Origin: Amoebophrya sp. A120
Lineage: Eukaryota > Protista > Dinoflagellata
Assembly (NCBI GenBank): GCA_905178155.1
Contig: CAJINV010000001.1
Location: 2,125,572-2,189,571, forward strand
Reading direction: 5' to 3'
DNA length: 64,000 nt
The notes below the pieces were generated by a model that worked only from the letters and a program-made list of their open reading frames with translations, searched no databases and was not told where the DNA came from. Position 1 is the first letter of the stretch; every line of letters starts with the position of its first letter. The position numbers and the translations under genes are program-made. Shown one piece after another: positions 275 through 62,153 of the stretch.

Positions 275-3200
275 TCACCGCGAAGGCGCACTGGGGCTCG
301 AGTTTTTAGCAAGGAGACACCCGCTGGTTCCGGCCTGCAGAGGGAAAGGCAACCGGGAGGAGGTTGCCAAGTTTCCGAAGCTGAACGTGTTTGAGTTTTT
401 CCGGCTGTCCCGGCCGAACCCGAACCGCGGGGTTGGAATCGGCGACGGCACGGCGCTGGAGTGAGGTGGCCCACGCGTCGGAAAAAGGAAACTCGTCGCA
501 CTCAGGGCTGCGGTCTGTTGCGCCGCCGGCTGCAACAGCTGTCGGGGCGTCGTCAAAAGCTGCGCAGGGGTCGCGCTACCGGAAGAAATTTTGCTGGTGC
601 CCGATGGCAAAGAACACGACACAGCAGAGGGAGGACGCTGCACCTCAGCTTCTTGGTGTTCTTGCTGTTGACTGGTCGTGCTCGTCGTGACCACAGGAAT
701 TACAGGGGCGCTGGTCAAACTACTCTGTTTCATTTCTCCTTGTTCCGGCCGTGGCGGCTGTTGTTCCCGGGGCGACCACAATGGGCGCAGCCCGGCGTGC
801 GCAGCGGGTGCTGGAATTTTGGGCTCCTGAAGTGTGGGCGTGACAAATTTAGTTTTATTACCCGTCTTCAATTCATGAGATTGATCCGCGGCTGGTGGAA
901 TTACAACTCCGATCGTGCCAGCATCCAATTTATTTCCAGCATGATTCATCTGATGAACAAACGACCCTGCTGCGAGCATTGAGCTTTTGCTTCTCAGAGC
1001 CGCCGAAGCAGAAAGAGAAGGGGATGGTTGTAACAATCTCCTGCGAGACGTGCTACTGGTACTAGCAGACTCTACTTCTAGCTGAAGTTGATGCTGCATG
1101 CTCTTAGGCTGGACGCTGGCCGACCGCAATTGCGGCCCTTCTAGGCGGGTAGTCGTTACTCCCATCATCTTCCTTTCCCGTTCGAGCGAGCCGTTTCGTC
1201 GGTCAGAAAATTGGAACCCGGTGGTAATCCCGCCGGGTCGCAAAAAGCGACTCGCGGAGCGCCCGCGCCCGAGAATGGTCGTCTGCTGATTTATTTTTTC
1301 TGCCGTCACTCCTGCCGGCGCAAAGCACCCTTCTATTTTTCCATGGTGCAGCACATCACGTTGCATCTGGAAATCTTCGAAATGGTTATCACACAGTGCG
1401 TTCCCGTCTCCCACGGTTGTTCTGGCGTACGCTTGCTGACCAATGACTTCATTATCAATTCCCGAAGGAGAAGCAGCAGCAGCTGTTGCAACTGGAACAG
1501 GAACATTCGTACCAATCCTTTCACTGCTATTTTGCGGCGGATTTTTGACAGCATGGTGTAGTCCTTGATCGTCGTCTAAGGAATTATCGCTCGGAACGTC
1601 TACATCTTGTTCAACAAAAACTACATCAGCTGCATTCTCATCACTATTATTTCCATTTTCCCAAGTGCTGGCGTCTGCTTCCGTTTTATTCCGCGCCTGC
1701 AGCTTCACCTGCTGCCCGCCACCGTCTTTGTTCATCTCATCACGATCCCCGCCGCCCCCGATTCCCGGTGGGAACAGCGACAATTTCGGCGGTGTGAGGC
1801 CAAGCGAAAATTTGATTGAGGTTGGCGTCGGAATCGCAACCTTGTTCTGCTCCGTTTTCGCGGCCAAAATCTGCGATGTACCCGGCAGCGGCCGCGGCGA
1901 AAGCACAACGGGACTCATACTCAACGGCGTAGTTCTCTGGCAAGCCGCACTCCGTGTGGATTGTTGTAGGCTTTGAACAATCTTCGCGGTACCATCACCA
2001 CCACCACCAGAGTGATTTTTAACAAGTGTCGGGTCGTCGCTGAGACGTTGTCCACGCGCTGCACTGGGACTCGGACAAAGGCTCCTGCGCAACATCGAGG
2101 TTGAAGTTGTGACATTGCTATTGCCAGTCGGCGCCAGCCCAGTATTTTTCACACTGTTGGCCACCTTGTGCTCCGTTACGCCGCGACTCACAGGGGACGA
2201 GAATCTTGACGCACTGTTTCGCCGTGACAACGACCCAGGCTGTAGTACTGTTCCAACTCCCATCAACGTATGCTGCAGCGGCGGCGGCGGAGCCAAAAAC
2301 CGCTGTCCGCCTCCGACTACTTTGCGGATGACTTTATTGGTGCAGCTTGTGGATGGGTTATCTCTATTTGACGACGAAGCATTGAAGGTCGTCGTTGTTG
2401 GCGCGCATCCGCGCCGGCCCAAGCTGGTGGTTGTGCCGCAGGAGCTTCCGACGGACAAAAGCCGGTGCATCCGCGGGCTTTTCGGGTGGAAAATTTCCTG
2501 CTCCTGGTGTTCTTGCTGTTGTACTGTAATGACACCCGGAAGCTCGTGCTCGTCGGACACGACCTGAGCGTGAGCGACCGGGGCTGCAGTAGCAGTTGCT
2601 GCTGGTGCTGGCTCTTTTGCATAAGCACCCGCCCCAGGAGTTGCTGCACTTCTACTATCAGCCGGCTGCACTTCGAATCCTCGTGGCGTACGAAGTGTCA
2701 CTTTCTCGTCCGGACGCGCATTCTGAAAGATCGTGTAGGGGTTCGCAACGCCGCCTCGGTGTGTTCTAGATATTCAAGAAAAAAACACCATCTTCACAAT
2801 CACGTTTGCACATTTTTGCAATACAAGAAATTTTTGTCATGCGCAAAAATGCATCACTACAGTCAAGAGATATAGGCGATTGCCCTTTGTGTTTTTGCAA
2901 TACAATAAAAATTTGTCACGCAAGGCAAATTTCTGATGCAAAACCTCCTAAGTGTGATTGCGATGGTGTTTTGTTCTTAGTAGAGGAGAAGCCTGTTCTA
3001 GAAGTAGCGTCTGGATCCGGGAGCGCAGGTTTGTTGCGGTAGACAGTCGAACCTGACTTAGTTTCAATGGCACGCGAATCGACACCGTCTTCCTCTGACC
3101 AACTTGACGCCGGCTGCGGGGGCTCGAATAAAACGGTCGGCGTGTTGACAGAAAGTTGTTGCGCTTGTCCAGCATCGGTTGGGGTTGCACTAGACGTACC

Positions 3201-11889: not shown

Positions 11890-14800
11890 TTACTTCAAGG
11901 ATCTTAAATGTTGACCAGCAGCAAAATAGTATCGGATTGCGCCGAGGATTTGTCGACCGGTCTTGAGACCACGCAGCACGCGCAACACTCGCTCTACAAG
12001 ATACCAAGACAGGAGGAGTTTGAGCAGAAACACTGTAAACACGCGCATCCTGTTCGAGGGAGCAGCGCCGGTCAGGCCCGAGGACCAGGATCCGCCGTTG
12101 AAAGCAGCGAGCCCCAACTCTTGCAGGTCCGCAAAGGCCCCCCGTAGCACCCACCGCGTCCACCAGGCTCTCACTGGAGCCAAGTATCGAACCGTTTTCA
12201 GGAGCACCGGTGCGAGCTTCTTTAAAAAACCCGTGTCAAACGGCGGCTGAATCGGCGGCAGTAACTCCAACTGCTTCGGCAGCACTTGTCGGTAGCGGAA
12301 GAAGCTCCTTTTGTAGCTGAGCTCCTCAAATCCAAACCGTCCGTGCACGCGCCCGCACCCCGAACGCCGGATGCCGCCGAAGGGCAGATTTTCGTGACCG
12401 AAATAGAACAACGGCGCGTTCTGCATCATGGCGCCCGATTGATGCATTTGTTTTACCGCTGAAATCAGAGCTTCGTCGTAGCCAAACACGTATGTGTTGA
12501 GCGGACTGTCGTGGATCTGGTGGATCAGACCCGCAATCTCGGCGGAAAGCCGTTCCAGCCGGTCGGAGGCAGTCTCGACGGAATTCCGCTCCGTTTCCAA
12601 AGCTTGATCGGCCGAAAAATCGTCGTCGTAGAGGATAACCGGGAGCAACGGGCCAAAAATCTCGTCCTTCAAATATAGGGCTCCCAAGCGTTACATTCTC
12701 AACTGTGACATGAATTTGGCATGCAGAAGCACCATCCTCATCCACGCGATCAAGCTGCTTCGCATGACAAATTTGCCTAGGGCTAAACGGCAGCTAAATC
12801 TGTGCGGCATTTATAATGCTACAGGCGCAATCTCCCCCCTTTCACTTTTCCCATTCTTGCATCACAAATCCATGTATCAGTTGAGAATGTAACAGTTGAG
12901 AACGCCATATCAAAATCGGGTCCTCCATGCTGGGGCCGATCACGAGGTGGAAGGGAAAGTAGCAGCACGTTGGGTGGTAGAGCAGGGCGGGGGAAGTAGT
13001 GGAGCTGGTGTTGTTAGAAGCCGGAGGAGTACCACCTGCAGTTACAATTTCCTCTGCAGTCGTGGTTGGAATCACTATTGCGACTTTGCTTGCAGAAGTA
13101 CTTCTTGCCGACGCGGACGCGGCCACTTCCGTAGAAGCTTTGCTACTACTGGCTGTCGTTGCGGCCCCTGAGGCCGACGTGTTTGGGTGCAGCTGGACAG
13201 TGGTCGCGGATGTAGAGGCAACCGAGGACGCAGAGGACACTTGGAATGGCTGCTCTCCACCGCCTCCGAAGGAGGACAATGTCGCTTGGCTATTTTCCTT
13301 CGAGCTGTTTTTGCTGTTTTTGTTTTCCTTCGCAGAGGACAACTCCTGGGATAGCGGGTTATCCGTCTTCTCCGAAGGAGTACGACGCTGAGACAAGTCT
13401 ATAACCTTCCCCGTTGTTGTCTCCAACATCTTTTGCAGCCTCTTCTGATGGTCTGCGTTAATCACCCGGCCGTAACTGAGACTCGTGTCCAAACCGCTTT
13501 TGTTTAACATCTTGAGGTCTTTCGCAAAAAACTCGTTCTGCACAATGTCGGTTACACAGGCCACAAAGTCCTCCAGCAAAATATCCTGTGCAAAAGTATC
13601 GCACTCGTACTGCAGTCATGCATTACAAATCTTTTTCTTAGGGCAGATCCCCATTACAAACTTTATTTCTCATGCTGAGGAAATTTGTAATGCATTTATA
13701 CGAGTGTGATACTTTTGCAGTTCATACAAAATCTTCGGCAGCAAAACGTAGTCTGGCGCCATGCAGACCTGCCCGCAGTTCTGCAACTTTTGTTTCAACA
13801 TGCGCCGCAACAGCGCCTTGAATTTGTCGTCGTTCTTCGTTTTGTTGTTCTTGCTCCCCGCTGTTGCAGAACAATACACGTCCCCGTCAAAGAGCGCGTC
13901 GTGGAGGAAAATGGCGGGATTTTTTCCGCCCAACTCCAGCGTGACCGGGGTCAAATTGCTGCACACGTTGCTGTTAGACACGACTTTCCGCGCAACGGCT
14001 TCCGACCCGGTGAACAGGATGTGGTCGAAACGGTTGTACTGCAATAGCGCCTTATGCAATACAAACTTCCTGCACATGTACAAAATGCATCACAAATTTC
14101 ACGACGCTAGAGCATGCCACTTGTCATGCTGAATAGAATAGCGAGAAAGTTTTGTCATGCAGAAACCACATGTGTACTAGAAGTGTACAAGTACAACACG
14201 TACAGGAAATTATACCGTGGATATGCCTGCGTGAAGCTCGCATCCCCCTCGAACACCAGCACCGCCTCGGGGTCAACATATTCGGGCAGCACCCGCAGGA
14301 GGAAACTGCTGCTCTGGGCCGCGACTTCGGTTGGTTTCAGCACGCAGCAGTTCCCGCTCGCAATGGCGGTGATCAGACCGTCTAGTAAGAGGCAGATGGG
14401 GTAGTTCCAGGGGGCGATGACCAAAGCCACCCCCTTATCCTGAGTAAAAACGTACCCACACCAGAGTCAGGATGGGGATTTTGCACCACAAACCTAGGAG
14501 CTTTGTGAGTCACGCATGACAAGTTGCAGACCGTAAGGTAGTGCAAGTTAGCAAGTGCAGCCGCGTCACAGATTCATCTGCTCATGCTGTTCACAGCATC
14601 ACAAATTCCAAAACACGACTGCCAATGGCTCTCATGGGGATGCGCATTACAAGTCTTCCTGTCTTTGCAAATCTGCGTCACAACTCTGGTGTGGGTACGT
14701 TTTTACTCAGGATACCCCTTCGGCTCAAACTCGTACCAGGAATTGCCGAACCAATACTCAACTGGCGTTTGGACATGGAACGGTATCCTGGGTAAAAACG

Positions 14801-15405
14801 TCGCTCCCACCCCGTAGTCAAGTAGTTGGGAACTTAGCAACACAAATCCAGAAGTTTTGGGAGCCACGCATGCCAAGTTGCAGTCCGTAGTGTAGTGCAG
14901 GTTTAGGTTAGCAACGGAAATTGCATCACAAATCCATCTGCTCATTCTGTTTTCAGCATTACAAATGCCAAAACACGATTGAAAATGCCTCTATTGGGTC
15001 TGCGCATTACAAATGTTCAGTTCCTGTAATCGCAAATCTGCATGACAACTCTGGGTTGGAAATGTTTTTACATAGGATAACCGGCGCCATCCATTCATCC
15101 AATTCCGCGATGGCCTTGTTCAGAAAAAGCTGGACCGCGATGATTTCCCCCGTTAGCGCCTCCACGAAATGCCGCCCGTGGTCAAATTTCAAACAGGCGA
15201 CGATCTCTCGTTCCTGCTCGGTCAAAAAACGCTGGAGCTCCTTCAGTTGGGCGATCCGGTAGTCATACGACCGCGTTTTTCCGCTTCGGAACGTCTGGTG
15301 TAGGTCGGAAACCCGAGCTTCCATCCGTTTCGACTCGGATCGCTGTCGCAGCAGCTTGTGCGGCGACGGTGGCCCGTCCGAGTGGTTGTTCGGTGAGCTG
15401 CTCAT
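11890..15405 (-). CDS. Aldehyde dehydrogenase, class-3/fatty aldehyde dehydrogenase-like; 6 exons, 5 introner introns
   Basis: After splicing: FRSGKTRSYDYRIAQL, EPKGVALVIAPWNYP, GNCCVLKPTE, FTGS, TLELGGKNP, NCGQVCMAPDY, KDEIFGP, LPFGGIRRSGCGRVHG; hydrophobic C-terminus. Confidence 0.93.
12674..12909. mobile_element. Introner in ALDH
   Basis: DR tcaaa; TIR core gttacattctcaactg; restores MEDPILKDEIFGP. Confidence 0.9.
13582..13726. mobile_element. Introner family B in ALDH
   Basis: DR caaaa; tatcctgtgcaaaagtatc…gatacttttgcagttcata; restores LPKILLED. Confidence 0.92.
14053..14223. mobile_element. Introner family E in ALDH
   Basis: DR cgcct/tgcct; similar to 34009; restores FTQALLQ. Confidence 0.88.
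14436..14714. mobile_element. Introner family C in ALDH
   Basis: DR cccct; perfect TIR tatcctgagtaaaaacgtacccacaccagagt; restores EPKGVAL. Confidence 0.95.
14784..15079. mobile_element. Introner family C in ALDH
   Basis: DR aacgg/accgg; homologous to the adjacent 14436 copy. Confidence 0.88.
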
Positions 15406-16465
15406 GATGTTGATGGCCGAGTCGTCGTGTCGAGGCAGGAGCGGAGGGAGTCAAGGTCTTGGTCAAGCGACGAGATGCAGCGACCTGGAGGTCGTGCAAG
15501 TACCGCCGTGGTCGCAGGAACGATTAAGAAGAAGGATCAGCGGTTGCGCGCCGGGCACGACCGTTTTCAATTTTTGACGCGGTTACGACCGTTTTGGCAG
15601 CATCACCGTACATTCGGTTCTTTGTTTTATTGCCAACCACTAAGTATGATTTTTTCACAAATGGCACTGGAAGACGAAGATATCAGGACGGTCATATCGG
15701 TGGCGCTGAAGTCCGAGATCTAGCATGTGATGAAACGAGGCTTCAACATACTCGAACAAAAGTGATGGTGATGGATCATGCATCATGTAATATTATACTT
15801 ACATAGGGGCGCCGGAGTACGATTCGGATCGGCTTCTGCACGAGGATATTAGCGATACCGCGGGGGAGTGTATTCTTTTTACAAAGTTGAAGGTCATGAT
15901 TAAACTAAAGTGCAGTGGGGGCACGATCCTTCAAGTGACACGAGACGGGGACGGGGTGGAGGGGAAGCTGCTAGAGGTAGAGAGGAAAGAGTGAGCACCA
16001 GCTGTTGCAGTTCCTGACATAAGTTCTTGCGCAATCAATCAAGACACTTTCGCTGGTTTGAATCTTTTCGAGATGTTGAACTGCTTTGAAGAAAGGATCT
16101 CAGAACTCATTGCGCACCGAATTATGCCTACCTTGGTTGCAACACGAGGGAGAGCTCTAGAACACTCATCTGCAAAAAAAAATGTCTACTCAATTCACCT
16201 TGTTGTTGTTCCTTTTCTTATTTACACCTCTTCATACAGAAAGTCAAAATTTTCACGCTTCAGTTCCTAACCACTAAGGAGAGTGATGATTTTTCGTGTC
16301 TTTCTCTTGTTGCGTCGCATTAACATGTCTGTATATAAAAGACGTTCGCGTTTCTTTTGTTCGCGCCACTCGTCCTCATACAGTTTCAATTTGTAGTTTT
16401 CACAATACAAAAGCAAATACTCACTCACAAACATCTACATCTTCGTCATTCGCAAATCAATAAAC

Positions 16466-46400: not shown

Positions 46401-48843
46401 TGGACTGGGGAACAACGACCGACGCATCATGGGTTTTACTTTCATCTAGTACACCTGATGAAGCAGACCACGCCGCAATCTTGTTTATGTTTTGCCCGGA
46501 TCTTGAAGAGGCTCTTGCAGCAGCCAGAAAGTGTTCCTTCGCCTTCGCCAAAACATACTCCGTGTCGTCCGGAATCTGTACATTGAAGAAATCCTGGTTT
46601 CTCGCATACAAGGCCGGGTAGACAAACAAGTTCTGTCTCTTGTCAAACCAGGCCTGCGCGGCGTGCTGCTTCACCGTTGACCGCAGCGCGTCCGCCCGCT
46701 GCTCGGTCAAAAAGGGCAGGGACAGAAGTGCGGCGTCGATGTAGGTGAGAAAGCAGAGCGTCTTTTCCAAAGCATCGGCCAGGGTAAACCGGTAAGGGAC
46801 CGCTAGGAAATAATTTTCTATTTCTTCTTGGTCGTGTCGGTGGTCTACTGCTCGTGGTGGCTCACTTGAGGTTGACGCCACTGCTGCAGCTGATGTCCTG
46901 CTTCGTCCGGCAATTGAATCTTCACGCTCGTGGTGCTCGAAAGCGAGAATCCGGACTGTCTTTGACTTTTTCTTCTTTTTCGACGAACTCTTTTTCTGTC
47001 TTTTCACCGAGTGTTGCGATGTTGTTGATGCGTTTACCTTTTCGATATTGCCTTTCTTGGAAGTACTTGCAGCAGGAGCTTCTTCTTGTCGTTCAACATC
47101 AACCTTGACTCTCTTCTCCGAGACGATCTTGGTCGTTATCGTCTTCAGCACCTTCCCTGCACTCCGGGTGAAAAATACCTGCGGAATCACGTGCGCGTGG
47201 CGGTCGTCCCGCTGCTGGCCGCCCAGGAAGGCGTGCTCAACGTTGTTGTGGATACTGACCCGCGGGGCGGAAAACGGGTAGTTGCGGTTGAACCGGACTT
47301 CCACGTTAAAAGTCAAACCGGCATAGTAGTGCATCATCTTATGAAAGTGCGAATAAACTCCCCCTCTTCCACCTCATTTGTCATGCTTAGCAGACTGCGC
47401 GACTAAAGCCCTGGGGGGTGCGGGGTCCGAGGGGTGCACTGAGCACTGCCCGGAACACCCGAACATGCCCCGCGACTGGCACAGGACCAGCAACACAACT
47501 ATTATCGTCGATCTCAGTTTGTCGATCACAACGTAGCTGCGAAGCCGTCCATTCATTTGTCATACAAAGTCCCAACTCCAATTGCTACCTTGTGGCGCAC
47601 CTGTTTGCGTTGCAAACTCTGGAAGCCCAAAGCCAAACAGTAGGACTACACTTCTCAGCGCAATAAACTTGTCATGCACAGCGTCCACATCATGTGTTGG
47701 CGTTTGTATTGCTGTTCGTGCCTTACAAATGACAATGAGCGGTGTGGGTAGCTGTGGACTCTGATACATCTTCTCCCGCCACCACTCTGTGATGATCGGC
47801 CGGTTCTTGCCCGCAATCCTCGTGTATCCTGTGCAAAAGTATCGTACTCCTACTCGTACTAAAACTAATCGCAATCACGCATCACAAGTGAGTCTCCTTG
47901 TGAAGCTGAATCCGGCACATGACATCAAGCTCTATTTGTCATGCTGAGCTAATTTTGTATTGCGGAATTACTATTTCTAGTAGCACGTCGGTACTTCTGC
48001 AATTCATATCGTGGTCGTGCTCGGGTTTCCGTTTTTCCGATTCCGCTCCACGACCGTGAGAAACTCGTTCGTGTTCCGGTTCGTGTACCCCGGCTCGGGG
48101 ATCTGTAACGAGAACCGGATCGCCCACGGTCCGGTTTGTGGCGTCCCGGATTCCGTCACGTCGATCATGGCCGGGTTGCCGTTCATGCTGACCGCTCGGT
48201 ACCGAACCAGCTCGTAGGACCGGGGAATGAAAAGCTTCCGCAGAAGGGAGTGGCTCGCCGGGGAATTATCTTCATCATTTTCGGGCTTCTTGTCCTGCTC
48301 AGTGCTATTTGTTGTACTTGAAGTAGTTCTGGGACGAGGACGAGTCGAGAAGATTTCCAACAGCTCTCGGCCCATCGCCTCCACCGCGATTCGCGCGTCA
48401 CCGTGGTCATCGTCGTAGTAGATCTCAGCGGAGGACTTCGTCGTTCGTTCGGCCTCGAACAGCCGCCGCATCTCGTCGGCCGGGCATTCCGCGGTCTCCT
48501 TGCAAACTGCCCGGATCTCGGCAAAGTTATACTGCCAGTCTTCGCTTGCTGAAGAGGATGGGGTCGGCGGGGACGATGCCGCAGAAGCAGACAAGGTGGA
48601 TTCTTGTGATGAACCCGAACTGGCTGCGAGGACCGTCGTCGTCGACTGAAAATGAGCCAGCCAATAAAGCAGGTGAAGGGTTCTTACCAGCAAGAGCCCC
48701 GGCAAAGATGAAGTCGTGTATGCGAAGCTGCCACCACGACGGGGTGATCCGGCACACATCTTCCGCGACTGTTGTGGTCCGCCCATCCTCTCTCTTTGAT
48801 GTCCTACGTAGAAAGACGAACCTGCGGTGGTTAGACAGTTCAA
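43470..48843 (-). CDS. UBC/UEV-like domain fused to OGFOD2-like 2OG-Fe(II) oxygenase; 11 exons, 10 introners
   Basis: Spliced: GLTFNVEVRFNRNYPFSAPRV…; VYSFPLFTDEFCD; RPNSMNNYG; HLDMHTDDSDVTINI (HxD); HLGRHRHGA (distal H); ERMNLILW; CVSYTHDRDY; AEYDNFQEE-stop. Start codon uncertain. Confidence 0.85.
43504..43755. mobile_element. Introner family A
   Basis: DR ctctt; near-identical to 16794. Confidence 0.95.
43864..44086. mobile_element. Introner family D-like (TGT left end; GT-AG compatible)
   Basis: DR cacct; TIR caagaaaaaaaactgtgt; restores PDKVCVSY. Confidence 0.9.
44190..44473. mobile_element. Introner family C
   Basis: DR tccgc; restores GERMNL. Confidence 0.92.
44516..44673. mobile_element. 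Introner family B
   Basis: DR gtgcc; restores GRHRHG. Confidence 0.93.
44846..45097. mobile_element. Introner family A
   Basis: DR tgtcc; restores HLDMHTD. Confidence 0.93.
45283..45541. mobile_element. Introner family A
   Basis: DR tgggt/tgggc; perfect TIR tatgcagtgcaaatatgtctgggtctggaa; restores QRPNSMNNY. Confidence 0.93.
45608..45845. mobile_element. Introner family C (diverged)
   Basis: DR gcaga; restores DEFCDL. Confidence 0.88.
45895..46103. mobile_element. Introner family D-like
   Basis: DR aacca; TIR gaaaaaactgtttcactgtga. Confidence 0.9.
47340..47766. mobile_element. Introner, weak TIR
   Basis: DR catct; TAT…ATA ends; internal ttgtcatgc motifs; restores REKMMHYY. Confidence 0.75.
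47825..48008. mobile_element. Introner family B
   Basis: DR tcgtg; restores STTTRIAG. Confidence 0.88.
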
Positions 48844-50011: not shown

Positions 50012-51116
50012 CGGTGAACAATCGGTGAAAAAACCAGCACCGCCGGCAGCTGCTGCAAAGCTTGATGTTCACAAAGACCCCTTTTCAACTGCTCCGAGCC
50101 GCCCGCGATATCGGACGACGGGGGTTCTTACGGTTAGATGACCACGACCCCGGCCCTGCGGTGGTTTCATCGCGGTACTCGTAGCGACTCTCATTATTTA
50201 ATGACTTCTACATCTCATGACTTCTAGATCCTGTTCATGGGCACTGCAAGACCGCATGTGGTTGCGGCGGTAATATAGCTCCGCTGCAAATTCGACTGGG
50301 AAGATTGATTCAAGCTTCAAATAACGGGTCCGAACTGTCACCACGACACGCTCTTCTCTGCTTCCGAATAAATTGACATTGATTTTACATTTGTTGAGCG
50401 CAAGCCCAGCTGCAAGTGCAAAGAAGTGCGGCGTTGCTTTCAAATAAATGCAAGCCAAGTGGCTGCCGACTCCTCGTGAGTTGTAGCCTTGTTCCTTGAT
50501 GTGGTACAAAAGAACAACACACGGACGCAGAGCGGTGTACAACACCTCGCCCCTTTTCTGGAACAAACACGCGGCGCCGGCAGCAACCGCTTCTTTTTAA
50601 GAAGTGTTTCGGCGTTGCTTTTCATCGCCGGGCGATTTCATTCTCGACTAAACTGTGTGCAGAGCCCTTGCTTTCTCGGACTCAATTCCTTTGCGCTGCT
50701 CCTCGTTGCTCAATGAATTGCGGCGACATGACCTGCCAACTTGTAATATATAGCGATCATTCCAATTTTTGTTTGCATGGACAAGGACATTTACTTTACA
50801 GCAAATTATAGGTGCAACTAGTATAAGTACACTTGCTCGCGTAGTCGTCCTTTGAAAAGTTCTTCGGGACGTTATGATCATCGTACAATCTTTGCTACAT
50901 GTCGTGCATCAGACAGCACGTGTGCTTCTCAACAAAATGAGCACAGTCAAGAATTCTATTCATCCAAAAAATGAAACAGGCGCTCATCTACATCATATAT
51001 ACATTTTTTCGAAAGAGTTGTAGTTTCCAGAAAGAAAGTGGTCGTGTCTCTAGTAAAACAACTCCGCAGCTCCAACTGTATTGTCATCTGCGCTTTTACA
51101 ACTAGCACCCATAATA

Positions 51117-54100
51117 CTAATTGGGGTTCGCCGCGCTCAGCGAATTCCGCAGCATCCACTTCAGCTGAGCGCGATTTTCCTTACCGGCGACCTTTTCCCG
51201 GATCGTTGCGGTGACTTGTCCAAGCACTTTGAAGAGGTAATTTGGCACGAACTGGAGCTTTTCCTGAAATTTTCTTTCCACGTCGGAAAGCAGCTTCGGG
51301 TCCTCCAGCTTTTTCTTGTTATGCATCGCAAAGTGAAGCACTGTGGCTAATGTCAAAACGCAGCACAAGAAAGCAAAGCTGCAACAAAGCAGACGCAATC
51401 CATCGGAAAGAGGCGGCGGCTTTTCTATTTCCAAACCCCCGCGTCCCCACTGAATCCGCGCCAAAATATCTGAGCGCGCGGGGGTCATTCTGCTCGCGAG
51501 AAAATGAGCAAGAGCGCAAAAGCTGCAGCGTTATTGGCGCGACTGACGCGCTTCATTCTGCCGATTCGATGAGGGGCCCGAGGAATGGCGTCGCCTGTTT
51601 GAAATAAAAATATTTGGCAACGTCTAATTACCACGGTGCTTAATTTTGCAGTGAATACTTGACGTCCTCGATCAATTTCTTCCCACTTTGGGCGATCGCC
51701 GTCGGTGTCGGCATACACCACATTTTTGTTCCTTTGGTCGGATCCTCAAAGCTCTTCAGCACTTTCATGCGCGCGTCAGAATCTTTGCCGCGAACATGAT
51801 CCGGGAACAACAGCTCCAGGAGCACCAACCGCACGGCACGACTATCCGCGTCCATTTTCGACGTCGGCAGGTGGAGACTCAGTTGCCGATGATCACGCAG
51901 CTTCAGGTGCACGCTGTGCATGGGATTGTACGAAACCAGAATCGCGTACGCCACATCGTTCATCAGGTCCCCCAGCCGGACGTCCAAAAACACGCCAAAC
52001 TCCGAGGCGGCCACTTTCCAGAAGGACCGCAAGGGCGCCACGACGAGCCCGCCGATCGCGACCCCCCCGAGGCTGATCCCGGAAAACAGTGCCAGGAGGG
52101 GGGTGATCACGCGCTTCTCGAAATCGTCGATGATCTTGTCGCTCACTTCGTTGGGGCAGACCTCCCCGCTCTTGTCCGCGTCCAGAAAACTGATAAAGAG
52201 CGCCAGGTGCGAGGACATAAGTGCGGACACGAGGCGCGGGACGTTGCGCACAAGAAACTCTTCCGCCACCTTCAACAGCTCCCCCGCGCCCTTGTAAATT
52301 TTCTTTTTCACCGACTTATACAGCGGCGACAACACGTCGTTTACGAGACCTGCGAAATTCAGCTCCAATACGGGCATGCGGACGAATCCATATGCAGTGC
52401 AAGAGCATTTACATATTTGAATTTGTACGGATTGCAACACAGCATCAATACAAGCTAAATCGGCCTTTTTTATACCAATCAATTTCGTCTTTCATCAACT
52501 TGGGAAAGTAATCATTATCATTTGTGATGCCATAAATTTGACTCTTTGTCTTTCCAGGACCAGGAGTACGAAATAATACTAACTATAACTTACTTTTGCA
52601 CATTACATAATCCAGAGTTTGCGATTATTTGCGCCTTGGCTTTCAGCCGGGGACAGCCGAGCGCTACAGAGATCTGTTCCGACAACTTTGCGCACTTGTC
52701 GAAGTTATCCCCTACTGTCCAAGCCTCATTGTCAAACACCCACTCGCACTGCTTCATTTTACCCCCCTCGCCCTTTTGCATGCTATCCCGAGAAAAAAGA
52801 GCTACAGCTACGCATTTTTTATTGCAATTTCAGCAGCACAAACAGGGAAAGTAAGTTTGCAATGCAGCGACCCCCCCCCCTAAGGGTGGAAAACACGTAT
52901 GAAACGAGGGTCGCAAGCATTTCTGGCATGACAAAGGTAAAGGCTGTCTGTCTTGTCTAATTCCGCAACAAGATCTTCACAAAAATGTGTAAAACTGTAA
53001 ACACTTTTACTCAATTTTCCTCGCATACATGCCCTCTGTGATCGAGTGCGCCGCTTCCGCCGTGGCCAGGAGCTGCCTCACGCGCCCCACGCGATCGACG
53101 TTGTGGAAGTGCCAGGGCCGAAATTGACAAAGTCGAAAAATTTGCGATGCACAAAATCGATGTCAGTTGGTGGAGCCTCAGTTTCCAAGTGGCGCATGAC
53201 ATAAACAGACTGTGCAACACGAGGTGGCATTGTGTTTCGGGTGATTTGATCAACCCAAAGACGCCGCCACCCCGGGCCCAACGGACCTGGCACTCCAAAC
53301 TTTCCTCCTCACACACACGCCTCCAAGTGGCGCATGACAAATTTCGGGAGCCTCATTTGCCTGCTCCCAAATACAGGCCTTCAGTAACCTACATTTTTTG
53401 CATCGCATATTTTTCGACTTTGTCGATTTCGATCCTGACACATCCATAGACGTCGTCAACACTGTAACAGGATTGCTTCAGCTTATCGTATCCAATGCAA
53501 ATATGTCTGGGTCTGGAAGGTTGCAACTTGTTATGCTGAGTCTGGATCATGCAAAAACTTCTGTTGCATGATTACCAAAAGATGTCCGCTTTTGACCAGT
53601 TTGACAGGGAGTTTTTCATGCAGGATAGGCACGACAGACACCTTACAGCATCTCTCATGCTAGGTGCTGCATGCCAGGCCTCATGGGTCATGGAAAACCT
53701 GCATCACAAATCTTGCATTCTTCCAGACCCAGACATATTTGCACTTCATATATCGTAGGCCGTGACAAATTCCGGCACAGCCGAATGTGCTGTCGCATCA
53801 AACAGCTCCAGCATCTATGCATTGCAAATATGTCTGGGTCTGGTATGGTATGAGGCTTTCGCCCTCCAGGCACATGGAATGCAAAGTGCAAAGGACGCTG
53901 GGTCTGCAACAAAGGTTGAAGCTGTATTGCGTGTTTCGCACATCTAAAAAATCATACTTAAGTAGCACATAAAGCGCCACACTTTCGTCATGCAAAAGCG
54001 CAGTTTGCAATGCGTTCTGCGCTTGAGAAAAAGGTTGAAAAATTTGTCCTGCTGCACTGCACCTACAGGCACAGTCAATCATGTTGACCATTCAGCATTA

Positions 54101-57100
54101 CTCGCGCGCAAGGCCCGTAGCAATAGTTATTGCGTGCGAATTTGAAGGAAAAAGGAAACAAAGGAAAAAGGAGAATTTTATTTTGGAGTAGTTGAAGTGT
54201 GTTCTAAATTGTGATTGTGTAATTACAACATACAAGTTCCCAGACCCAAACTAGTACATATTTGCGTTTGATAGCATCGTCGAACCAACAACATGTTCTT
54301 CACCTTCTGGTTCCTCCGCTGCTGCTGGTGTGCTCGTCCACCACCAGTCGTCGTATCACGAGAAAAAAGTGTTACAGTTACACATTTGTTTGAGCTTCTG
54401 CATCACAAATTTTCGCTGTGTGACAGGGAAAACTTGCAATGCGAAGATTATAAAGGGAAAACAGGAAGGAAACGAGGCTTCCAAGCATTTCCTGCATGAG
54501 AAAGGTTGCCTGTGTTGCCGGTCTTGCAACACAATGTGTAACTGTAACACTTTTTTCTTGCGATACGTTGAGCTCGAAGTCTACTACCTCCTGCGGACCA
54601 GCAAAGTAGAGACCAGCGTGTCCTCCTCGTGCGCGAGAACCTTCTTTCATCCACATGCTTCCCGGGGGCGCACGCGCACGACGAGGAAACCGATCCACTA
54701 CTTCGTCGCCGACTTGCAGCACCGTGACCCCTTTCTCCCGCTGCTTGGCCTTCTTCTGTTCCCGGTGAAAGGAAGCCCTCACGAGCCCCTGCAGCTCCGT
54801 GAGCAGCTTCGGGTTTGCAATCTGCCGGCGCAGCACCGTTCTCACTCGCATCATGACCGCGTAAAGCTCGGTGCTCTCCATCTTGGCCAGCATTTCGTAC
54901 ACCCTCGGATCGAGTTTTTCAACTAATTTTCGCTCGCTGAGTGGCGTGCGCAGAATCTTCTTGGCGCTCGCAGCCAGGTCCTGTGCCCTGGCTAAAAGCG
55001 CCGCCGGGGTGATTATGCACCACATTTTCTGCGTCCCCTCCCGGAACCGGTCGGGTTATCAAAATCAAAAATCCCCCCTCCCCATATTCAAAACGACGGG
55101 TCTGATGTTGTCGGAACTGCGTACACAAATAAGGGATCGCTGCTGGACGATTCTCAGTCTGCGCAGGCGAGTTCGAGTCTAATTGCTTCGCATGTTGGTA
55201 CTAGTGAACGGCTGCCCTGTAGTACTAGCCCCAACAGCATGAAGATAAATCGCTTCCATAATGGGGCGGAAACCCCTGCTCTTGCCTTCTTGCTGATTTG
55301 TGGCCACAGATCAGCATCACAAATTTCCATTTTGAGCACTCATGGGACGAAGGGGGAACTTTTCCTCATGGCACGAGTGCGGCCTTCCCGCCGTCCTCCT
55401 TGCCACGCACCGCGTCCGGGAAAAGCAGTTCGAAATATCACGCAAAAAAAATGACTTCCAGCACTGTGACGCATTTAGTGCAGCAGGATCTACTGCGTCA
55501 CAAGGTTGTCGCAGCACATGACGAAAGAAATGCAAATCTACTTTCATGCGTGCATCCCAACATTGGCGGATGATGAATATAACACATCTTTCTAAAATCA
55601 ACAATCCGTTGCCTTGCACTGGTAAGAGGAAAAACTACACTGCTGCACCCTTGCACGACGCTCTCCTGTATGTACAACTGCTTCATGATAAGTTTTTTTA
55701 CAGTGAAGCAGTACTTTTTTTTGACGATACGAAAAGTACGAGTTGCATTATGTCCGTTGTGGCCGCTCCCAGTTTCGCCACAACGTTCCCAGTTCCACCA
55801 TGATGATGATCATGATGATGCCGGTGGTGGTGGTGGTGGTGGTGGTGATGATGGTGGCGGTGGTGGTGGTGATGATGGTGATGATGATGATGGCGATGAT
55901 GGTCATGATGATGAGGATGATGGTGATCACCATTCCTACCACTACTTCCCCCGCCCTTGGCGTCCAGGGCGAAAACGAGCGTGCGCGAGACTTCGTTCAC
56001 CACGTAACCCAGGCGGGTGTCCAAAAACACCGCAAACTGGCTCGCGGCCACGTTCCACAAGCGACGCAGGGGGGACGCCACTAGTTCGCCGACGGGAAGC
56101 GGCCCCAGTTTCACGGCCCCGAACGCCTCTACCAGCGGGTCGATCACGCGGGCCTCGAACTCTTCCAGCACTTTCTGACTGATCTCGTTCGGGCACACTT
56201 CGCCGCTCCCATCTACATCTAACATGTCGATAAACATGACCAGATGGGAAGACAACAACGCCGATATCAGGGGCGGGATGCGTTGGCTGAAAAAGTTGCC
56301 CACTTCGTCTTTGAGGTGCTCTATGGGGTGCAGCATCTTGTTCGTTTGTTTCGAAAAAAAGTCGGCAGCCGATGTCCACATGTCGGAAGTAGTGCTGTGT
56401 AGTGTCTTGCGCGGTGGTGGTCGCTTGTGCGGTCGCGTTCGTTCTTCCGGTGGCGTCGTCGGCGCGCGTCGAAAGCCAGCGGCAGTCGTCATGTTGTGCC
56501 ACTTTTCGGTCACCCATTTTTCGACGCCTTCCTCTCCCTCCCTGCGCGCCATGAAAGAGGAGGCGCTGCCCCCGGAGAACATCGCACCCATTCTTTCCAG
56601 GAGCGGCTTCATGAGGTCCCGCACAAGTCCCCCGAAGTTCAGTGCGTGCACGGGGAGACGGATGTAGCCCGGCCGGTTAATGGCGCTTTCTCCGGCGGGC
56701 ACGGGCTCGCACCCTATCTCCACCGAAACTTGATCGGACAGCTTCGCACACTTCTCCCAATTGAGGTGATTTGTCCACGCTATGTTGTCAAACACCCAAG
56801 AGCACGCGAGGTCCTGACCCATTCCCTCCATACAATCCGCGCCTTGAAGGTCGCAGTCGCCAGATGCGGATACTCGCACGCGTGCGGTCGCGATCATTTC
56901 CCGGGCTCGAGACAGACGTCCTACGTCGTCGTTTATCGTGTAGCACTCTTTCTGCAGCTTTTCGTACGTCACCGCAAACGACTCAACGTGCTCGTCAAGG
57001 TGCAGGTTGTTGTCCGCGCTCTCCTCCAAGTTCTTTTCTTCCCCTCTGCTCTCCGCAGTTTCGGTTTTCCCCTGCCGATCCGCTTTGATGCCTCCCTCCG

Positions 57101-58643
57101 CTTTTTGTTCGGAGGACTGACTAACTTTTTCCGTTATTTTATCCGTCGCGCCAGCTTTCCCTGATGTAGTAGATGCTTTCCCTTGCGACTTATCCGTATG
57201 ATGATGCTGTTCCTGATGATGATGCTGCGCACTTTTGGATTTTTTCGTCTTTTTGATTTTATGGCGGGCCCTTCGCTTGCTTCTTCTACCCGGTACCATT
57301 AATTCCAGGATAGATTTTCCCTCCGCAGCCCCTGGGAAGAAGACTGGGCCTTCCTCTATCAGCTGTAGCATGGACGTGACACCATTCGGGAAGAGGGGCG
57401 AGATCTTCACTACTGTTGTCGCATTCTGGGGGGCTCCTGCGCCAGCAGCAGTTGAAGATTCGAGGCCATCTTCGTGGACCCTTTCGGAGTTCTGCGCTCT
57501 TGCATCAACTCTCGTCCAGCTCGGCGACAGAAGAACTTCGTCCTCTTCATGTAGTTGTGGAGATGTTGTTGACTCCGGTTTGGAGGTTTCTTCCTGCAGA
57601 ACACTGCTGCTGCTGGCGGGTACTATAATTTCTTCCCCAGCACCTCCTGCTTCCGCTAGAACATCTTGATCTGTCTCGTCGACCTCGTGCGTCTTCAAGG
57701 TGTCGACCGAAACAGACGGCGTCGATGTTGTTGACACTGGTGAGGACCTCTGATCTTCCGCGACGTCATAAAAATCGGGTGGAGATTCCTCCTCTTCTGC
57801 TGCTGCGCTTTGCTCCTCCGCAACGACGACGCCGCCACCGACCTCGACAACGCTCTGGCGGTTGATGTTAGGCGGGTCTTGTCGTACCGCCCGGACAAAA
57901 ATGAGCCACATTTTGTTGTCCGCATCATTATCTTCCCGGAGTAGATCACGCGATGTCGAGCCGTTGCGTTGTAGTTGTTGCGGAGAGAGATGTATTTCTA
58001 CCTCTTGCTCCTGCTCGCGCACACGCAACAGCAAAATCATTCCGGCAAGGTGCTGCGCCAACAGTACCAGCCCGCAAATCCACATGAGGAAGTAGTGCTG
58101 CCGCGCAGGAGCACGACCACCGATGTGGTCCTTTACTACGGGAGATGATGTGGACGACCTGAAGCCCGTCCATGTTGAAAAAGCTCGTTTAGAATTCCGT
58201 GCCGTAGGTCGAAAAGTCGATGTAGTTCCTGCTTTTCTGCCCGATGAAAATAGAAATACGGACGTCGCGGCACCTGTGACGTTGTTCCTTGCAGGAGTTT
58301 CGTTGCGTTCTACTTGTTGGGCCGGCCTATTCTTTGATGTGGTGCTCATCTTCTTGGCTCCTGAGGTACTAAACGCTCTGGTTGCACAACTACCGGGTAT
58401 CACCATCTTCATGGAGTTGTGCAGCGCCACCAATGCTGCAAGCCGAGCGTTCCCTTCACGACTTCCCTGCTGTATCAACATCTCCCTCGAAGTTGTTCTT
58501 GTCCCCGGAGTGTTTTTATCAACTTTGCCTCGTTGTTTCAACACCCGCCCTGGACAACGTCGTGGAGGAGCAAGAGTCCCTGTGTCGTGTCGCTTCATCT
58601 CACCTCGACGAGCACGCCGGCCCTGCTTTCCGATTATGACCAT
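51117..58643 (-). CDS. Large protein with two copies of an unrecognised Cys/EF-hand-like domain and a poly-His tract; 10 exons, 9 introners
   Basis: Repeat pairs: WVFDNIAW…KCAKLSDQVSV / WVFDNEAW…KCAKLSEQISV; LDVDGSGEVCPNEIS / LDADKSGEVCPNEVS; ELLFPDAVRGK / ELLFPDHVRGK. All nine junctions restore frame. N-terminal hydrophobic segment. Confidence 0.8.
51320..51657. mobile_element. Introner, weak TIR
   Basis: DR cttgt/cttga; tatgcatcgcaaa…ttttgcagtgaata; restores DVKKKLED. Confidence 0.75.
52391..52609. mobile_element. Introner, short TIR
   Basis: DR atcca; restores NSGFVR (paralogous repeat has NRPGYIR). Confidence 0.82.
52784..53027. mobile_element. Introner family D (diverged)
   Basis: DR catgc; interior similar to 54354. 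Confidence 0.85.
53102..53448. mobile_element. Introner with about 50-bp TIR (TGT left end)
   Basis: DR gacgt; TIR core gacaaagtcgaaaaat.tgcgatgca; restores DDVDRV. Confidence 0.9.
53489..53750. mobile_element. Introner family A
   Basis: DR tatcg; restores AYDKLK. Confidence 0.92.
53816..54273. mobile_element. Introner family A, long variant
   Basis: DR gcatc; right TIR has a small insertion; restores STMLEL. Confidence 0.85.
54354..54565. mobile_element. Introner family D
   Basis: DR cgtcg/cgttg; homologous to 29307. Confidence 0.9.
55057..55373. mobile_element. Introner family G (right end GCA)
   Basis: DR cgggt/cgagt; left end like 61080; restores KAA(L/P)DRF. Confidence 0.75.
55436..55729. 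mobile_element. Introner family D-like (diverged)
   Basis: DR cgaaa; restores LVLFELLFPD. Confidence 0.85.
55795..55930 (-). repeat. Coding CAY trinucleotide repeat (poly-His)
   Basis: (tga/tgg)n on + strand, in frame as HHHPHHHDHHRHHHH…. Confidence 0.85.
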
Positions 58644-59421
58644 CGATCTTGATGAAGGAGACGCAGACGTTTTTTTATTTCACGAGCGTTTTCTAGTACG
58701 GGAGACCACTTCTGCTTCTGACCGGTAGGCCGCATGAAGATCTTCTCATCGTCGGTAACAAATAGCTGTTGCCCTCAAGTACATCAGCGACGGCTCAGCG
58801 ATCCTTTGTGCTCAGATGCATGCTGTGATATCGAAAAATAAGGACCCCTCTGTCTCCCGAAAAGTGGACCCTCGCTTTACGATTTTTCACTCGTCCGAAC
58901 TCTTATACTATTACTACCCCATCGCTTCGCAGCCACGACCCCGGAACTAGCAGTCTAGAACTTCCGCACGATGACAAGCAGGAACATGATCAAAGAGGTG
59001 TCACTAGAGATGATTCCATGAGATTCATTTCTCCAGACCAGTGGATAAAAACCACGAATTGACTACAGCATCAGACTTACTTCCCAGGTCGTCAGGACGA
59101 CCGGGACTGCACACAGAAGATTGAGAAAACTTCCGCACCAGACAGGTGGTGCCTCCAACCGTTGAATACAGCGGCATCAACAATTAAGATGTTCATGTAC
59201 ATGTAGCAGACACATTCATGCCGCGCTTCTTGAACGAAATATGGTTGGCCATTCACCACACATATTTACCCCGGATGCAGATGGACTGCTCAACACATTT
59301 ACTATTAGGGCTCGCGCTGCTCCGGCTCTACTTCACAAAAAAGAAAAACTCCTCCTGCAACTGCATGAACATTTCATCTCGAAGGCCGGGACTAGATGTT
59401 GATCATCTTCCCAGCTGCTCT

Positions 59422-62153
59422 TCACTGCACACCGCACCCGGCGTCCAGTTCGGGTTGCCCCTTGCGCTTCCGCAAGATATTCCGCATCTCCAGGAGTGTA
59501 CCGGGCTGTTGCCGCAGAATCACGTTGGTGAAGGTGGTATCCAAGAAAAAAAACTGTGTATAGTGTAGGTCTTTTCTTTGGGAAAACAGCATCACAAGTT
59601 TGTCTGCCATGACAGGCAAAACTTGTGATGCGCAGATACGAAGGGAAAACACATAGGAAGCGAGCCGATCATGTACGTCGAGCATGACAAGTGTAAACTG
59701 TTTTGCATTTTCTGCATCACAGATTTACACTTAGTACACACTTTTTTTCTTGCATAGGTGGCGGGGATGTTGCCCTTGAAGTCCAGCGACGAGATGTAGG
59801 TTGCCTCCGTGTTCCCCCGCCCATTATGCACCGAACAAAGTGGCACAGTTACACATTGTGTTGCAAAACATGCAAAACAGACGACCTCTGTCATGCGATA
59901 AATGCTTAGAGGTCTCGTTTCGTGTGCGTTTCGCCTTATGAATATGATCTCTGCATTACAAGTTTCCTCCGTCATGCGAGGCAAATTTGTGATGCTGAGA
60001 ATTCAATACAAATGTGTAAGTGACACTTTTAGCCTTGGATACCCATCCGCCTTCAGCCAGTAGCCGCTATGCAAGCCTCAGCATGGAAATTCTCATCAAA
60101 GTGGATGAGCTAATTTGTGCTGCATGAAATGCGACACCAAAAAGACTGCATTGCAGAGAACGCAATGGAGGTCGACTATTGTGCGCCTACTGGTTCAGAA
60201 TTGGGCTCCTGGTTAGCACGAGAGAAGGGCACCCCTTTGCCTAACTAGCATGACAGACACGCTTTGAGTGCCCGGGAAATTTGCCATGCGCCGACTAGAA
60301 ATGGTGCTTCAACTGGAGTCGTTTTTTTGCATTCCAAATTATAATTATTTTCACTTTGGGATTTTCCACCCTGAGGCTTTCATAGCCGCATTCCCGGAGT
60401 TCCGCCCGTACGACCCCCGGTTTTTCCGGGATCTATCAGATGCAAATATGTCTGGGTCTGGAAACTTCTGATGCTAAAATGTGGATGATGGAAACAGTTC
60501 CGAATGCAACCCAGCGTGACAACTTTCCAGAACGCGTTCTCATAGGCAATCCGCATGAGAAGCTGCGTTTTTGCATGTCTGTGCAAAAGAGGCTGCGACT
60601 TTTGTTGGTCTATGCAATATAGATTTTCTAAGTATGGAACGCTAGCCTTACAAGTTCCAACCTTCTCCAGACCCAGACACTTTTGCAATCCATAGGATCG
60701 CCTCGTCGGCCACCGACTGCGCCACCAAAACGCAGCCAAAGTCCGTCGGGTGCCACGCTCGCAGTAGGCACAGGTCCCGCGGCTGCACAAACAGCGCGCC
60801 CTTGTACGCCAAGTGGGCCAGATCGCACCCGGCTGCTTGCGTTGATGTTCTTGTTGATGCGCGTGTATTAAGAACTGCGTCGTTGTGGGCTACTGTGGTC
60901 GACTGTTCATCTTTACCATCATCTCCGCCTGCTGCGCCTTCGTATTGCACATGAACCCTGCCATACTCCATCTGCGAATCCCAGAGTTTCCGGCGCTCCA
61001 AATCCACGATCAGTCCCAGGATCTCCGCCGGCTCGGTTTCGGGAAACACCAAGCGTCCACGCACCGCGATGATGTCGTCTATCAAAATGAAAAATCTCCC
61101 CTCCCCATATTAAAACGGAGATTTGTGTAGCATGATTTGTGATCACAAGTGGCGTTGTCATGCTAGAAGGGAAGAGATTCGGATTGTATTGCTGGCTGGC
61201 GCAGGAATGGAAAGCCTTGCGTCTTCAGCATGACTATGACGGCAGTAACGTGCCCAACCCCTAACTTACCCATGGGGGATAAAAAAAAAATTTCGGTTTA
61301 TCTTATATAGATAATATAGATATTTATATAAGCTACCTAGTTGAAATAGATATATAAGCTCAGTAGCTAGAAAAGGCGTTTTTGAAGGCTTCCACGACGC
61401 TACTCCGCCGACATCCAGCCTTCAAAAACGCCTTATATACATAAGCTATTAAGCTAACTAAAAACAAAGCATTTTCGCTAGCTATTTAATATATAACTAC
61501 CTTATTTACACCGAAAAAAAAAAACTGTATCCCTTTGGGTAACTAGCCTGTTGGGCACGTTACTGCCGTCATAATGACAAGAAGCAACTGGAAACGGGAA
61601 ACAGCGTGACAAATTGCCTCCAAACGAGGTAGCAACCGCGTCTCTTGGCCTTCTGGCAATACAAAGCGATTTTTGTACTCAAATACAGCAACACAAATTC
61701 CGTTTTCGATATGGGGAGGGCGGATTTTTCTCCACAATATCGTCCCCGACGTATTTTTTGCCGACGTACCGAGCGATCTCGAGTTTTTCGGCGGAAATCC
61801 TATTGTTCAAGGGCTTGGCGCCAGAACTCGATGAAGTAGAACTAGTTTGTTTTTCGCCGCTCTGGAGCACCATCCAGTCATCGTAGGATTCCGCTTGTTT
61901 CTCCAGTATCCTGTGCAAAAGTATCGTACTCGTATAAATGCTGGTCTTGCATTACAAATTTCTTTGTCAAGGCAAATCAGCATTACAAATTTTATTATTA
62001 TTTCTCATGCTGAGAAAATTTGTAATGCATTTATACGAGTTGTACGATACTTTTGCAGTTCATATCCAGAAAATCCAGGCAGCCCTGACGAACGGCCGCG
62101 AATTCGGGAGACAACGCGGTGCTGATGGGGTTCGTGCTGGTGGGAGGAGACAT
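59422..62153 (-). CDS. START (lipid-binding) domain protein; 7 exons, 6 introners
   Basis: Spliced: DDWMVL, DDIIAVRG, RKLWD, VQPRDLCLLRAW, SVADEAIPEKPGVVRAELRECGYWLK, LDFKGNIPATFTN. Confidence 0.85.
59538..59756. mobile_element. Introner family D-like
   Basis: DR ggtgg; similar to 43864; restores IPATFTN. Confidence 0.9.
59825..60041. mobile_element. Introner family D (inverted relative to 29307)
   Basis: DR cccat; restores KADGRG. Confidence 0.87.
60068..60384. mobile_element. Introner family F (inverted relative to 41291)
   Basis: DR gccgc; restores RECGYW. Confidence 0.92.
60434..60694. mobile_element. Introner family A
   Basis: DR ggatc; restores EAIPEKP. Confidence 0.92.
61235..61573. 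mobile_element. TIR element nested inside an introner
   Basis: Perfect 24-bp TIR tatgacggcagtaacgtgcccaac; DR atgac. Confidence 0.9.
61266..61542. mobile_element. AT-rich MITE-like segment, possible third nesting level
   Basis: ttaccca…tgggtaa ends; flanks ctaac/ctagc; internal 18-bp IR aaggcgtttttgaaggct (61373-61390 / 61417-61434). Confidence 0.55.
61907..62064. mobile_element. Introner family B
   Basis: DR tccag; close to 44516; restores LDFLEKQ. Confidence 0.93.

Follow-up and report, generated by a model that had tools for sequence, protein, structure and literature searches.

TAT…ATA introners with 5-bp direct repeats in a 64,000-nt stretch of Amoebophrya sp. A120: likely non-autonomous DNA transposons, probably removed from gene transcripts without reliance on GT-AG borders

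The stretch of DNA analyzed here (the window) comprises 64,000 nt of the Amoebophrya sp. A120 genome, with coordinates counted from its first letter, and carries a dense set of short inserts with inverted-repeat ends (TAT…ATA), which are flanked by 5-bp direct repeats and interrupt protein-coding genes. The host frames of all elements are located on the minus strand, and every outer element, i.e., every element not nested in another, lies inside minus-strand open frames, which span 65–79% of the element-free window; no outer element was observed within intergenic DNA or conventional introns of the window. Host genes, given as stop-to-stop frames on the minus strand, include an aldehyde dehydrogenase (ALDH) gene (11893..15450, CAD7923309.1, five elements), a gene encoding a UBC-like segment and an OGFOD2-like 2OG-Fe(II) oxygenase (43473..48843, CAD7923318.1, ten elements), and the gene of a 1596-aa protein (51120..58679, CAD7923320.1, nine elements). 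A coiled-coil gene, also on the minus strand (24172..32343), forms a frame of 2263 codons once three elements and three hand-picked, predicted GTAT…AG introns (28998–29176, 30593–30761, and 31389–31836) are removed. The elements belong to the introner class published for A120 and are already known, because Farhat and colleagues described them in the A120 genome (Farhat et al. 2021, PMC7789003). The first-pass annotation of the window, which referred to introners with repeats and non-canonical ends in Amoebophrya, was right on this point, and the published account covers these very elements.

Scanning the window strictly for N5-TAT…ATA-N5 returned 34 pairs. A motif-blind scan, defined by an exact 5-bp repeat and a 20-nt inverted-repeat match with no TAT requirement, recovered 21 pairs matching at 15/20 or more and 27 pairs with TAT at both ends, compared to 0 and 0 in each of five shuffled controls. 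The curated set consists of 41 elements (40 outer ones and one nested at 61235–61573 inside 61080–61739) with lengths of 111–660 bp, which are listed without a strand of their own. The earlier count of 41 elements thus holds for the curated set, and it rises to 42 when the real but damaged element at 2771..2980, which has lost one end, is included. The 5-bp direct repeat was exact in 34 of the 41 elements and showed at most one mismatch in all of them (seven with a single mismatch). Other exact repeat lengths were rare, with 4 bp found once and 6, 7, and 8 bp not found among the 41 elements. Element ends read TAT[C/G]…[C/G]ATA, and 79 of the 82 ends begin with TA; variant termini were TGT at 43864 and 53102 (2/82 ends) and TGC at 55373 (element 55057..55373). 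The end profile features A frequencies of 0.78, 0.78, 0.95, and 0.78 at positions 11–14, in a set chosen on TAT. Grouping of the 42 elements by sequence placed 27 of them in seven groups and left 15 singletons. Near-copies of 93–94% identity occur in opposite orientations, as observed for the element at 16794..17048 compared to those starting at 41679 (inverted) and 43504. An Rfam scan of the window gave 0 matches. The element-like inserts reported previously, with their inverted and direct repeats, are real and correctly described.

For comparison, one related metagenome assembly (the relative) was used, in which a pattern scan gave 177 stretches representing 169 loci (L001–L169) and 586 kb. 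Within the ALDH gene, the element at 12674..12909 has an exact 5-bp repeat, and that at 13582..13726 falls into the same group as those starting at 18416, 44516, and 61907. The element at 14053..14223 shows a synonymous repeat mismatch at host position 5 and is shared with a relative. Its neighbor at 14436..14714 features a terminal match of 20/20 and faces an empty site in ORF P0001 of a relative, while the repeat of the element at 14784..15079 differs at host position 4, where the deposited protein keeps the upstream copy.

The oxygenase gene harbors its final element at 43504..43755 and others at 43864..44086 (TGT end), 44190..44473, 44516..44673, 44846..45097 (adjoining the HxD motif), 45283..45541 (repeat mismatch at host position 1), 45608..45845, and 45895..46103. 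Two further elements were detected at 47340..47766, with decayed ends, and at 47825..48008. In the gene of the 1596-aa protein, elements are located at 51320..51657 (mismatch at host position 1), 52391..52609 (decayed ends), 52784..53027, 53102..53448 (TGT end), 53489..53750, 53816..54273, 54354..54565 (mismatch at host position 2), 55057..55373 (mismatch at host position 3), and 55436..55729. The deposited protein keeps the upstream copy at each of these three mismatches. The three elements of the coiled-coil gene lie at 27476..27586, 29307..29515, and 29772..30023, the last with a mismatch at host position 3.

Among the remaining elements, the curated scan identified those at 18416..18568 in a 662-aa open reading frame (ORF), 37600..37831 in a 541-aa ORF, and 41679..41930 in a ProX/YbaK-like gene, in addition to that at 29307 in the coiled-coil gene. 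The ProX/YbaK-like gene also contains an element at 41291..41595, which is 84% identical to that starting at 60068 in the opposite orientation. Further elements were found at 34009..34159 and at 39250..39515, whose repeat is all A on the host strand. A START-like gene is interrupted at 59538..59756, 59825..60041, 60434..60694, and 61907..62064 (all from the curated scan) and at 60068..60384, an element that leaves a micro-exon of ~21 nt. The element at 61080..61739 contains the nested, AT-rich element at 61235..61573, which has its own 5-bp repeat, a terminal match of 24/25, and internal palindromes, lacks the internal motif described below, and possibly represents a different mobilizing family with the same ends.

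Removal of an element together with 5 nt gave the longest open frame at 33 of the 40 outer elements, and retaining any element shortened the open frame. The seven exceptions are either close to the end of a gene or part of the START-like gene, which has a second open frame; orthologs settle two of them (43504 and 43864). Deposited A120 proteins match the window exons at 100% identity and correspond to removal of the element plus one repeat at 24 elements. The element-free readings are identical to CAD7923309.1 over 787/787 residues (five elements), to CAD7923320.1 over 1596/1596 residues (nine elements), and to CAD7923304.1 (one element, 2771). For the oxygenase gene, nine of ten junctions agree with CAD7923318.1; at the tenth (43473–43755, element 43504), the partial deposited model reads into the element, and the orthologs from A25 and AT5 follow its removal. 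The removal rule can thus be used to correct gene models, as in the oxygenase gene, whose deposited model wrongly enters this element. Orthologs align across element junctions with identities of up to 92%. The A120 gene models were built from BLAT transcript alignments (Farhat et al. 2021, PMC7789003).

Four sequencing runs were compared with the window, including X1, the kind of which was guessed to be RNA, and X5, of unstated kind, from which most of the listed junction matches originate. A 2970-nt contig of X1 (record 1) matches 46104–47334 and 48009–48823 with 53 letters in between. The genome has 674 nt at this place, and 53 nt are expected once both elements are removed along with one repeat copy apiece, so that record 1 is devoid of elements 47340 and 47825, exact to the base. 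Provided that the eight downstream elements are likewise removed, position 43318 would be a plausible end for the remainder of this contig. Among the matches listed, X5 contigs keep elements joined to their flanks (47825–50693 and 52224–53068), with element 47825 present in record 9 and elements 52391 and 52784 in record 11. Depth in X5 is even (31–46, one repeat piece with 82) and continuous across intergenic gaps, whereas X1 pieces end between genes and vary in depth from 9 to 55. X1 is therefore likely RNA-like, being gene-bounded and uneven as in transcripts, and X5 likely DNA-like. The raw RNA runs X8 and X9 touch only element pieces, with almost no exon sequence, and yield no junction. 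In these runs, 513 and 69 reads were located on the element pieces 60111–60181 and 44219–44274 and continued into unrelated sequence; we read them as RNA resembling the elements but derived from other loci or strains. Both the restoration of intact genes by removal of element plus one repeat and the junction anticipated for it thus found support, the former in deposited proteins at 24 elements and the latter for two elements in a contig that is likely RNA.

Concerning the origin of the inserts, 239 of 291 paired elements in the relative showed exact 5-bp repeats and 36 showed repeats with one mismatch; the pairing did not use the repeat, and the end profile was taken from the window, so that TAT is partly built in. 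Exact 6-bp repeats were found in 0/41 window elements and 0/291 elements of the relative. Most window element groups have copies in the relative, and an intact sibling of the damaged element 2771 is present in its locus L003. Two empty sites were detected. ORF P0001 of a relative shares elements 14784 and 14053 and runs uninterrupted across the position of 14436, and locus L131 contains an element at a site that, in the window (near 10294–10298), consists of one 5-mer only. These two sites show the 5-bp repeat to be a target-site duplication and the elements to be mobile. Around the L131 element, 20 synonymous and 6 non-synonymous codon changes were counted, the pattern of purifying selection. 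No target-site consensus was detected in 236 sites, where codon-phase bias was the only signal: of 128 oriented elements of the relative, 63 have a repeat whose first base is a third codon position (others 35 and 30; p = 0.0006), as do 19 of 40 in the window (others 16 and 5). In the cut register proposed below, this bias would amount to an excess of phase 0. The elements are accordingly likely to be non-autonomous DNA transposons of the terminal-inverted-repeat (TIR) type, as had been proposed in the first-pass annotation. Since TA..TA ends with rare TG variants occur together with a 5-bp duplication, insertion was likely mediated in trans by a retroviral-integrase-like (Ginger/IS3EU-type) transposase. 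Searching the window and the loci of the relative for long autonomous elements gave four pairs, none of them convincing. One member of the 41291 group, 1104 bp in length, lies at 505–1608 of locus L024 in the relative and contains additional repetitive sequence in its interior.

An internal motif, GCATNACA (GCAT[GCT]ACA), has 95 matches within the elements (10.5 kb) and a single one in the 53.5 kb outside. It is present in 37 of the 42 elements, compared to about one in shuffled elements, and spans groups that are otherwise unalignable. It has no strand bias with respect to the host strand (217 forward vs. 220 reverse in 128 oriented of 270 tested elements). Same-strand spacings of GCATNACA follow a period of 10.25–10.5 bp (~10.4; window p = 0.001), and the relative, represented by 45 distinct per-family spacings, showed periodicity as well (p = 0.0005), tests that are weakened by shared ancestry, as there are nine families, one of which holds 158/239 elements. 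With one mismatch allowed, the spacing signal in family representatives was faint (0.12). This helical spacing makes GCATNACA a likely, putative protein-binding site at the DNA level. The motif was not found in the text passages covered of the Amoebophrya A120 literature.

With regard to splice borders, a GT-AG parse is possible only at elements 27476, 34009, and 43864 (3/41), the same three that had been named before. Other parses comprise GC-AG (two), GA-AG (three), and AT-AC (one), with 44846 counted twice, and 33 of the 41 elements have none. GT-AG parses occurred in 3/41 window elements and 8/128 elements of the relative vs. 3.8% by chance; they are at chance level, which shows that there is no selection for GT-AG and that the borders of canonical U2 introns are not a feature of the window set. 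The GT-AG cases fall into the register or the repeat by chance. Co-option of splice sites was considered and ruled out, since GT-AG parses stand at chance level and the repeat has the composition of coding background. Elements in both orientations are absent from coding products. Chance-level parses and removal from coding exons in both orientations are in line with the earlier view that removal reads the element ends and not GT-AG, its chemistry being putative.

The position of the cuts can be narrowed down by imperfect repeats. At all four residue-changing mismatches (host positions 1, 2, 3, and 4), the residue in the deposited protein is that of the upstream copy, and the paralog CAD7963452.1 shares it at two of the four. 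Because the upstream copy is used at mismatch positions 1–4, the 5′ cut would coincide with the TAT start or precede it by one base. Element 2771, which at its host 5′ end lacks TAT and one repeat base, yields the deposited protein CAD7923304.1 only with removals of 214 nt. This length rules out both a cut at constant distance from the stem (218 nt) and a new TAC terminus (217 nt). It is compatible with cleavage one base ahead of a TA and four bases past ATA, or with joining at the surviving 4-nt repeat. Quite probably, therefore, a single register, N|TAT…ATA-NNNN|, applies to the elements. Long frames in three genes, one of them of 2263 codons, are preserved by removal of five hand-picked GTAT…AG introns, GTAT representing 2.9% of GT sites; a sixth hand-picked GTAT intron (38729–38971) did not join its two frames. 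Given the GTAT starts of these hand-picked introns, the element end appears to resemble a host GTAT donor with its first G relaxed, a likeness suggested by a few sites and deposited models. In the proposed register, every element intron begins with N-T, and T is likewise found at +2 in all nine 'predominant' A120 splice pairs of Table S4 in Farhat et al. 2021 (PMC7789003), to which aligner placement may contribute.

On balance, the elements are the known A120 introners, likely non-autonomous transposons, and are probably cut from pre-mRNA by a relaxed spliceosome reading their ends. In this scenario, a transposase acting in trans would insert the element and duplicate its 5-bp target. The 5′ cut would fall one base before TAT, the intron beginning with N-TAT as a degenerate copy of the host G-TAT donor, and cleavage at the 3′ side would come four bases past ATA, so that the element and one repeat copy leave the pre-mRNA. 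A relaxed, probably U1-independent spliceosome would recognize the symmetric element ends instead of GT-AG, and either orientation would work because the two ends have the same sequence whichever strand is read. A spliceosome is present in A120, and U1 was not found there (Farhat et al. 2021, PMC7789003). The spliceosome is moderately favored as the putative catalyst.

Several points weigh against this scenario. Removal of the element plus 5 nt gave the best frame for 103 of 191 elements in the relative, the other two frames reaching 44 each, with undetected introns adding noise. A transposase-coding element was found neither in the window and the 586 kb of relative loci nor, according to Farhat et al. 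2021 (PMC7789003), in A120. Support for the register comes from a single position-4 mismatch, from deposited models, and from one damaged element, which fits repeat-guided joining equally well; the canonical GTAT donors were picked by hand, automated intron enumeration being too noisy for donor counts. X1 is RNA by guess, and the action of the spliceosome is putative. Finally, the removed elements 47340, 51320, and 52391 have no predicted terminal stem, and in transcript orientation, G·U pairs in the stems were not above A·C pairs (42 vs. 31, p = 0.24; 110 vs. 104, p = 0.73), so that RNA-level selection on stems was not detected in this comparison. A requirement for an RNA hairpin is unsupported because of these two results.

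The stems also bear on removal independent of the spliceosome, in which the terminal repeats would pair, an endonuclease would cut the stem base, and a ligase would join the exons, as proposed for euglenids. Pairing of the first four bases is predicted at >0.5 in 28 of 40 elements, the fold z-score is below −2 in 37 of 40, removal is independent of orientation, U1 was not found in A120 (PMC7789003), and, according to a review, euglenid introns are released in circular form with no lariat. However, the stems show no G·U bias, no stem is predicted for three removed elements, 218 nt would be expected from a fixed stem distance at element 2771 where 214 nt are used, and the N-TAT start resembles the host donor; we consider this route unlikely. 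Another alternative is repeat-guided discontinuous transcription, where proteins bound to the ends and to GCATNACA loop the element out and the polymerase jumps between the repeat copies, so that the element is never transcribed. Retention of the upstream copy at 4/4 informative mismatches, the junction of element 2771 at the remaining 4-nt repeat, the scarcity of mismatches at repeat positions 4–5 (6/29, p = 0.04), the DNA-helix spacing of GCATNACA with no strand bias, and the missing RNA-pairing bias would all suit such a jump. If it were true, tens of thousands of 'introns' would be removed without splicing. It is nevertheless improbable: no precedent at such a scale is known, element sequence occurs in X1 contigs and in the raw RNA reads of X8 and X9 (of uncertain origin), mismatched sites leave very little homology (1–3 bases), and T at +2 and the GTAT likeness would be superfluous.

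Removal could also take place in DNA, the elements and one repeat being cut from the genome of expressing nuclei. Ciliate internal eliminated sequences with pointers provide a parallel with the same geometry in an alveolate lineage, and X1 was only guessed to be RNA. Yet, X5 contigs keep elements with their flanks at even depth across intergenic gaps (in the listed pieces), X1 pieces are transcript-like in ending between genes at depths of 9–55, and the introns were validated with RNA-seq (Farhat et al. 2021, PMC7789003), which renders programmed DNA elimination very improbable. An artefact hardly deserves credence, in which reverse transcriptase switches template at repeat-flanked hairpins and the genes are broken or retain their inserts. 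A hairpin with a direct repeat is a known signature of template switching (PMC8240250, PMC2923612), and all RNA evidence used here is based on cDNA. Against it, any retained element cuts the open frame, orthologs align over the junctions, purifying selection is seen in L131, up to ten elements per gene would all have to switch, and plain template switching would favor retention of the downstream copy.

Compared to known systems, the window elements share with the A120 introners of Farhat and colleagues the organism, the TAT/A end profile, the 3–5-nt repeat, the families, and removal from transcripts. In the available parts of that account (PMC7789003), the inverted repeat starts with TAT followed by seven variable nt and at least three A, the direct repeats have 3–5 nt (with a 5-bp example in the legend of Fig. 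S19), and the introners are MITE-like (resembling miniature inverted-repeat transposable elements), about 240 nt long, with non-canonical borders, 29,850 copies, and 1,954 families. The border position was left unknown and the repeat length variable there, whereas in the window, the repeat is uniformly 5 bp and empty sites show it to be a duplication; a likely single register, removal in either orientation, and an internal motif that is phased and common to many elements come in addition. The string 'GTAT' occurs 0 times in the available part of the supplement (PMC7789003); the register derived from mismatched repeats and the damaged element, mirroring GTAT donors, is likely to be an addition to the literature. 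Gozashti et al. 2025 (PMC12130899, Dataset file 8) classed many A120 families as TIR DNA transposons, with family 38 assigned to Ginger (5-bp duplication, TA/TA termini). Family 38 is about 808 bp long with ORFs, in contrast to the window elements of 111–458 bp (660 bp with the nested one).

Two integrase-type groups come close to the elements. Ginger2 termini are TGT..ACA, and TGT was found at 2 of the 82 window ends. The 4–5-bp duplication of Ginger2 (PMC10045372) agrees with the window, in contrast to these termini. IS3EU/GingerRoot elements feature TA..TA ends, occasionally TG..CA, and 6-bp duplications, and IS481EU has TNT..AYA ends with duplications of about 4, 15, or 25 bp (PMC10045372). 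The TA..TA termini correspond to 79/82 window ends, whereas 6-bp duplications were absent (0/41 and 0/291), so that, judged by sequence, the elements appear to fit neither IS3EU/GingerRoot nor Ginger2 fully. The nonconventional introns of euglenids share non-GT-AG borders, TIRs, duplication-like repeats, and a probable MITE origin (PMC12501133, PMC11282704), as well as a 3′ cut a few bases past a paired motif and coexistence with GT-AG introns. The Euglena signature N3CDG…CHGN5-6|R does not apply, the window ends being symmetric (TAT…ATA). Among sequenced strains, such elements are limited to A25 and A120, with no mechanism reported in the available parts of the sources (PMC12005148, PMC11453091).

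Regarding the host proteins, Pfam analysis of 28 exon pieces detected only ALDH, tRNA_edit (weak), UQ_con, OGFOD2-like, and START (weak) domains, and no match was obtained in the three exons of the 1596-aa protein scanned. This protein (51120–58679) shows an internal duplicated domain, in which visual inspection suggests an EF-hand-like motif, as well as a long His tract (55800–55930), and has a 72% paralog on another A120 contig. The UBC-like segment (46111–47337) is fused to the OGFOD2-like oxygenase, and the same pair is found in A25 and A120 paralogs (P0061, P0062). A tandem duplication of ~36 nt is located in a minus-strand ORF at 22766–22836, and non-coding DNA at 62690–63010 carries short tandem repeats of several units.

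The GT-AG-free removal of tens of thousands of Amoebophrya introns has been a standing question since 2021. The window adds no new system and sharpens the test by means of a predicted register, N|TAT…ATA-NNNN|, aligned with the host GTAT donor. Its natural mutants, namely seven mismatched repeats and one element without TAT, represent sites that could discriminate between mechanisms, and the shared, phased motif GCATNACA may serve as a bait for the transposase or for a factor that reads the element ends.

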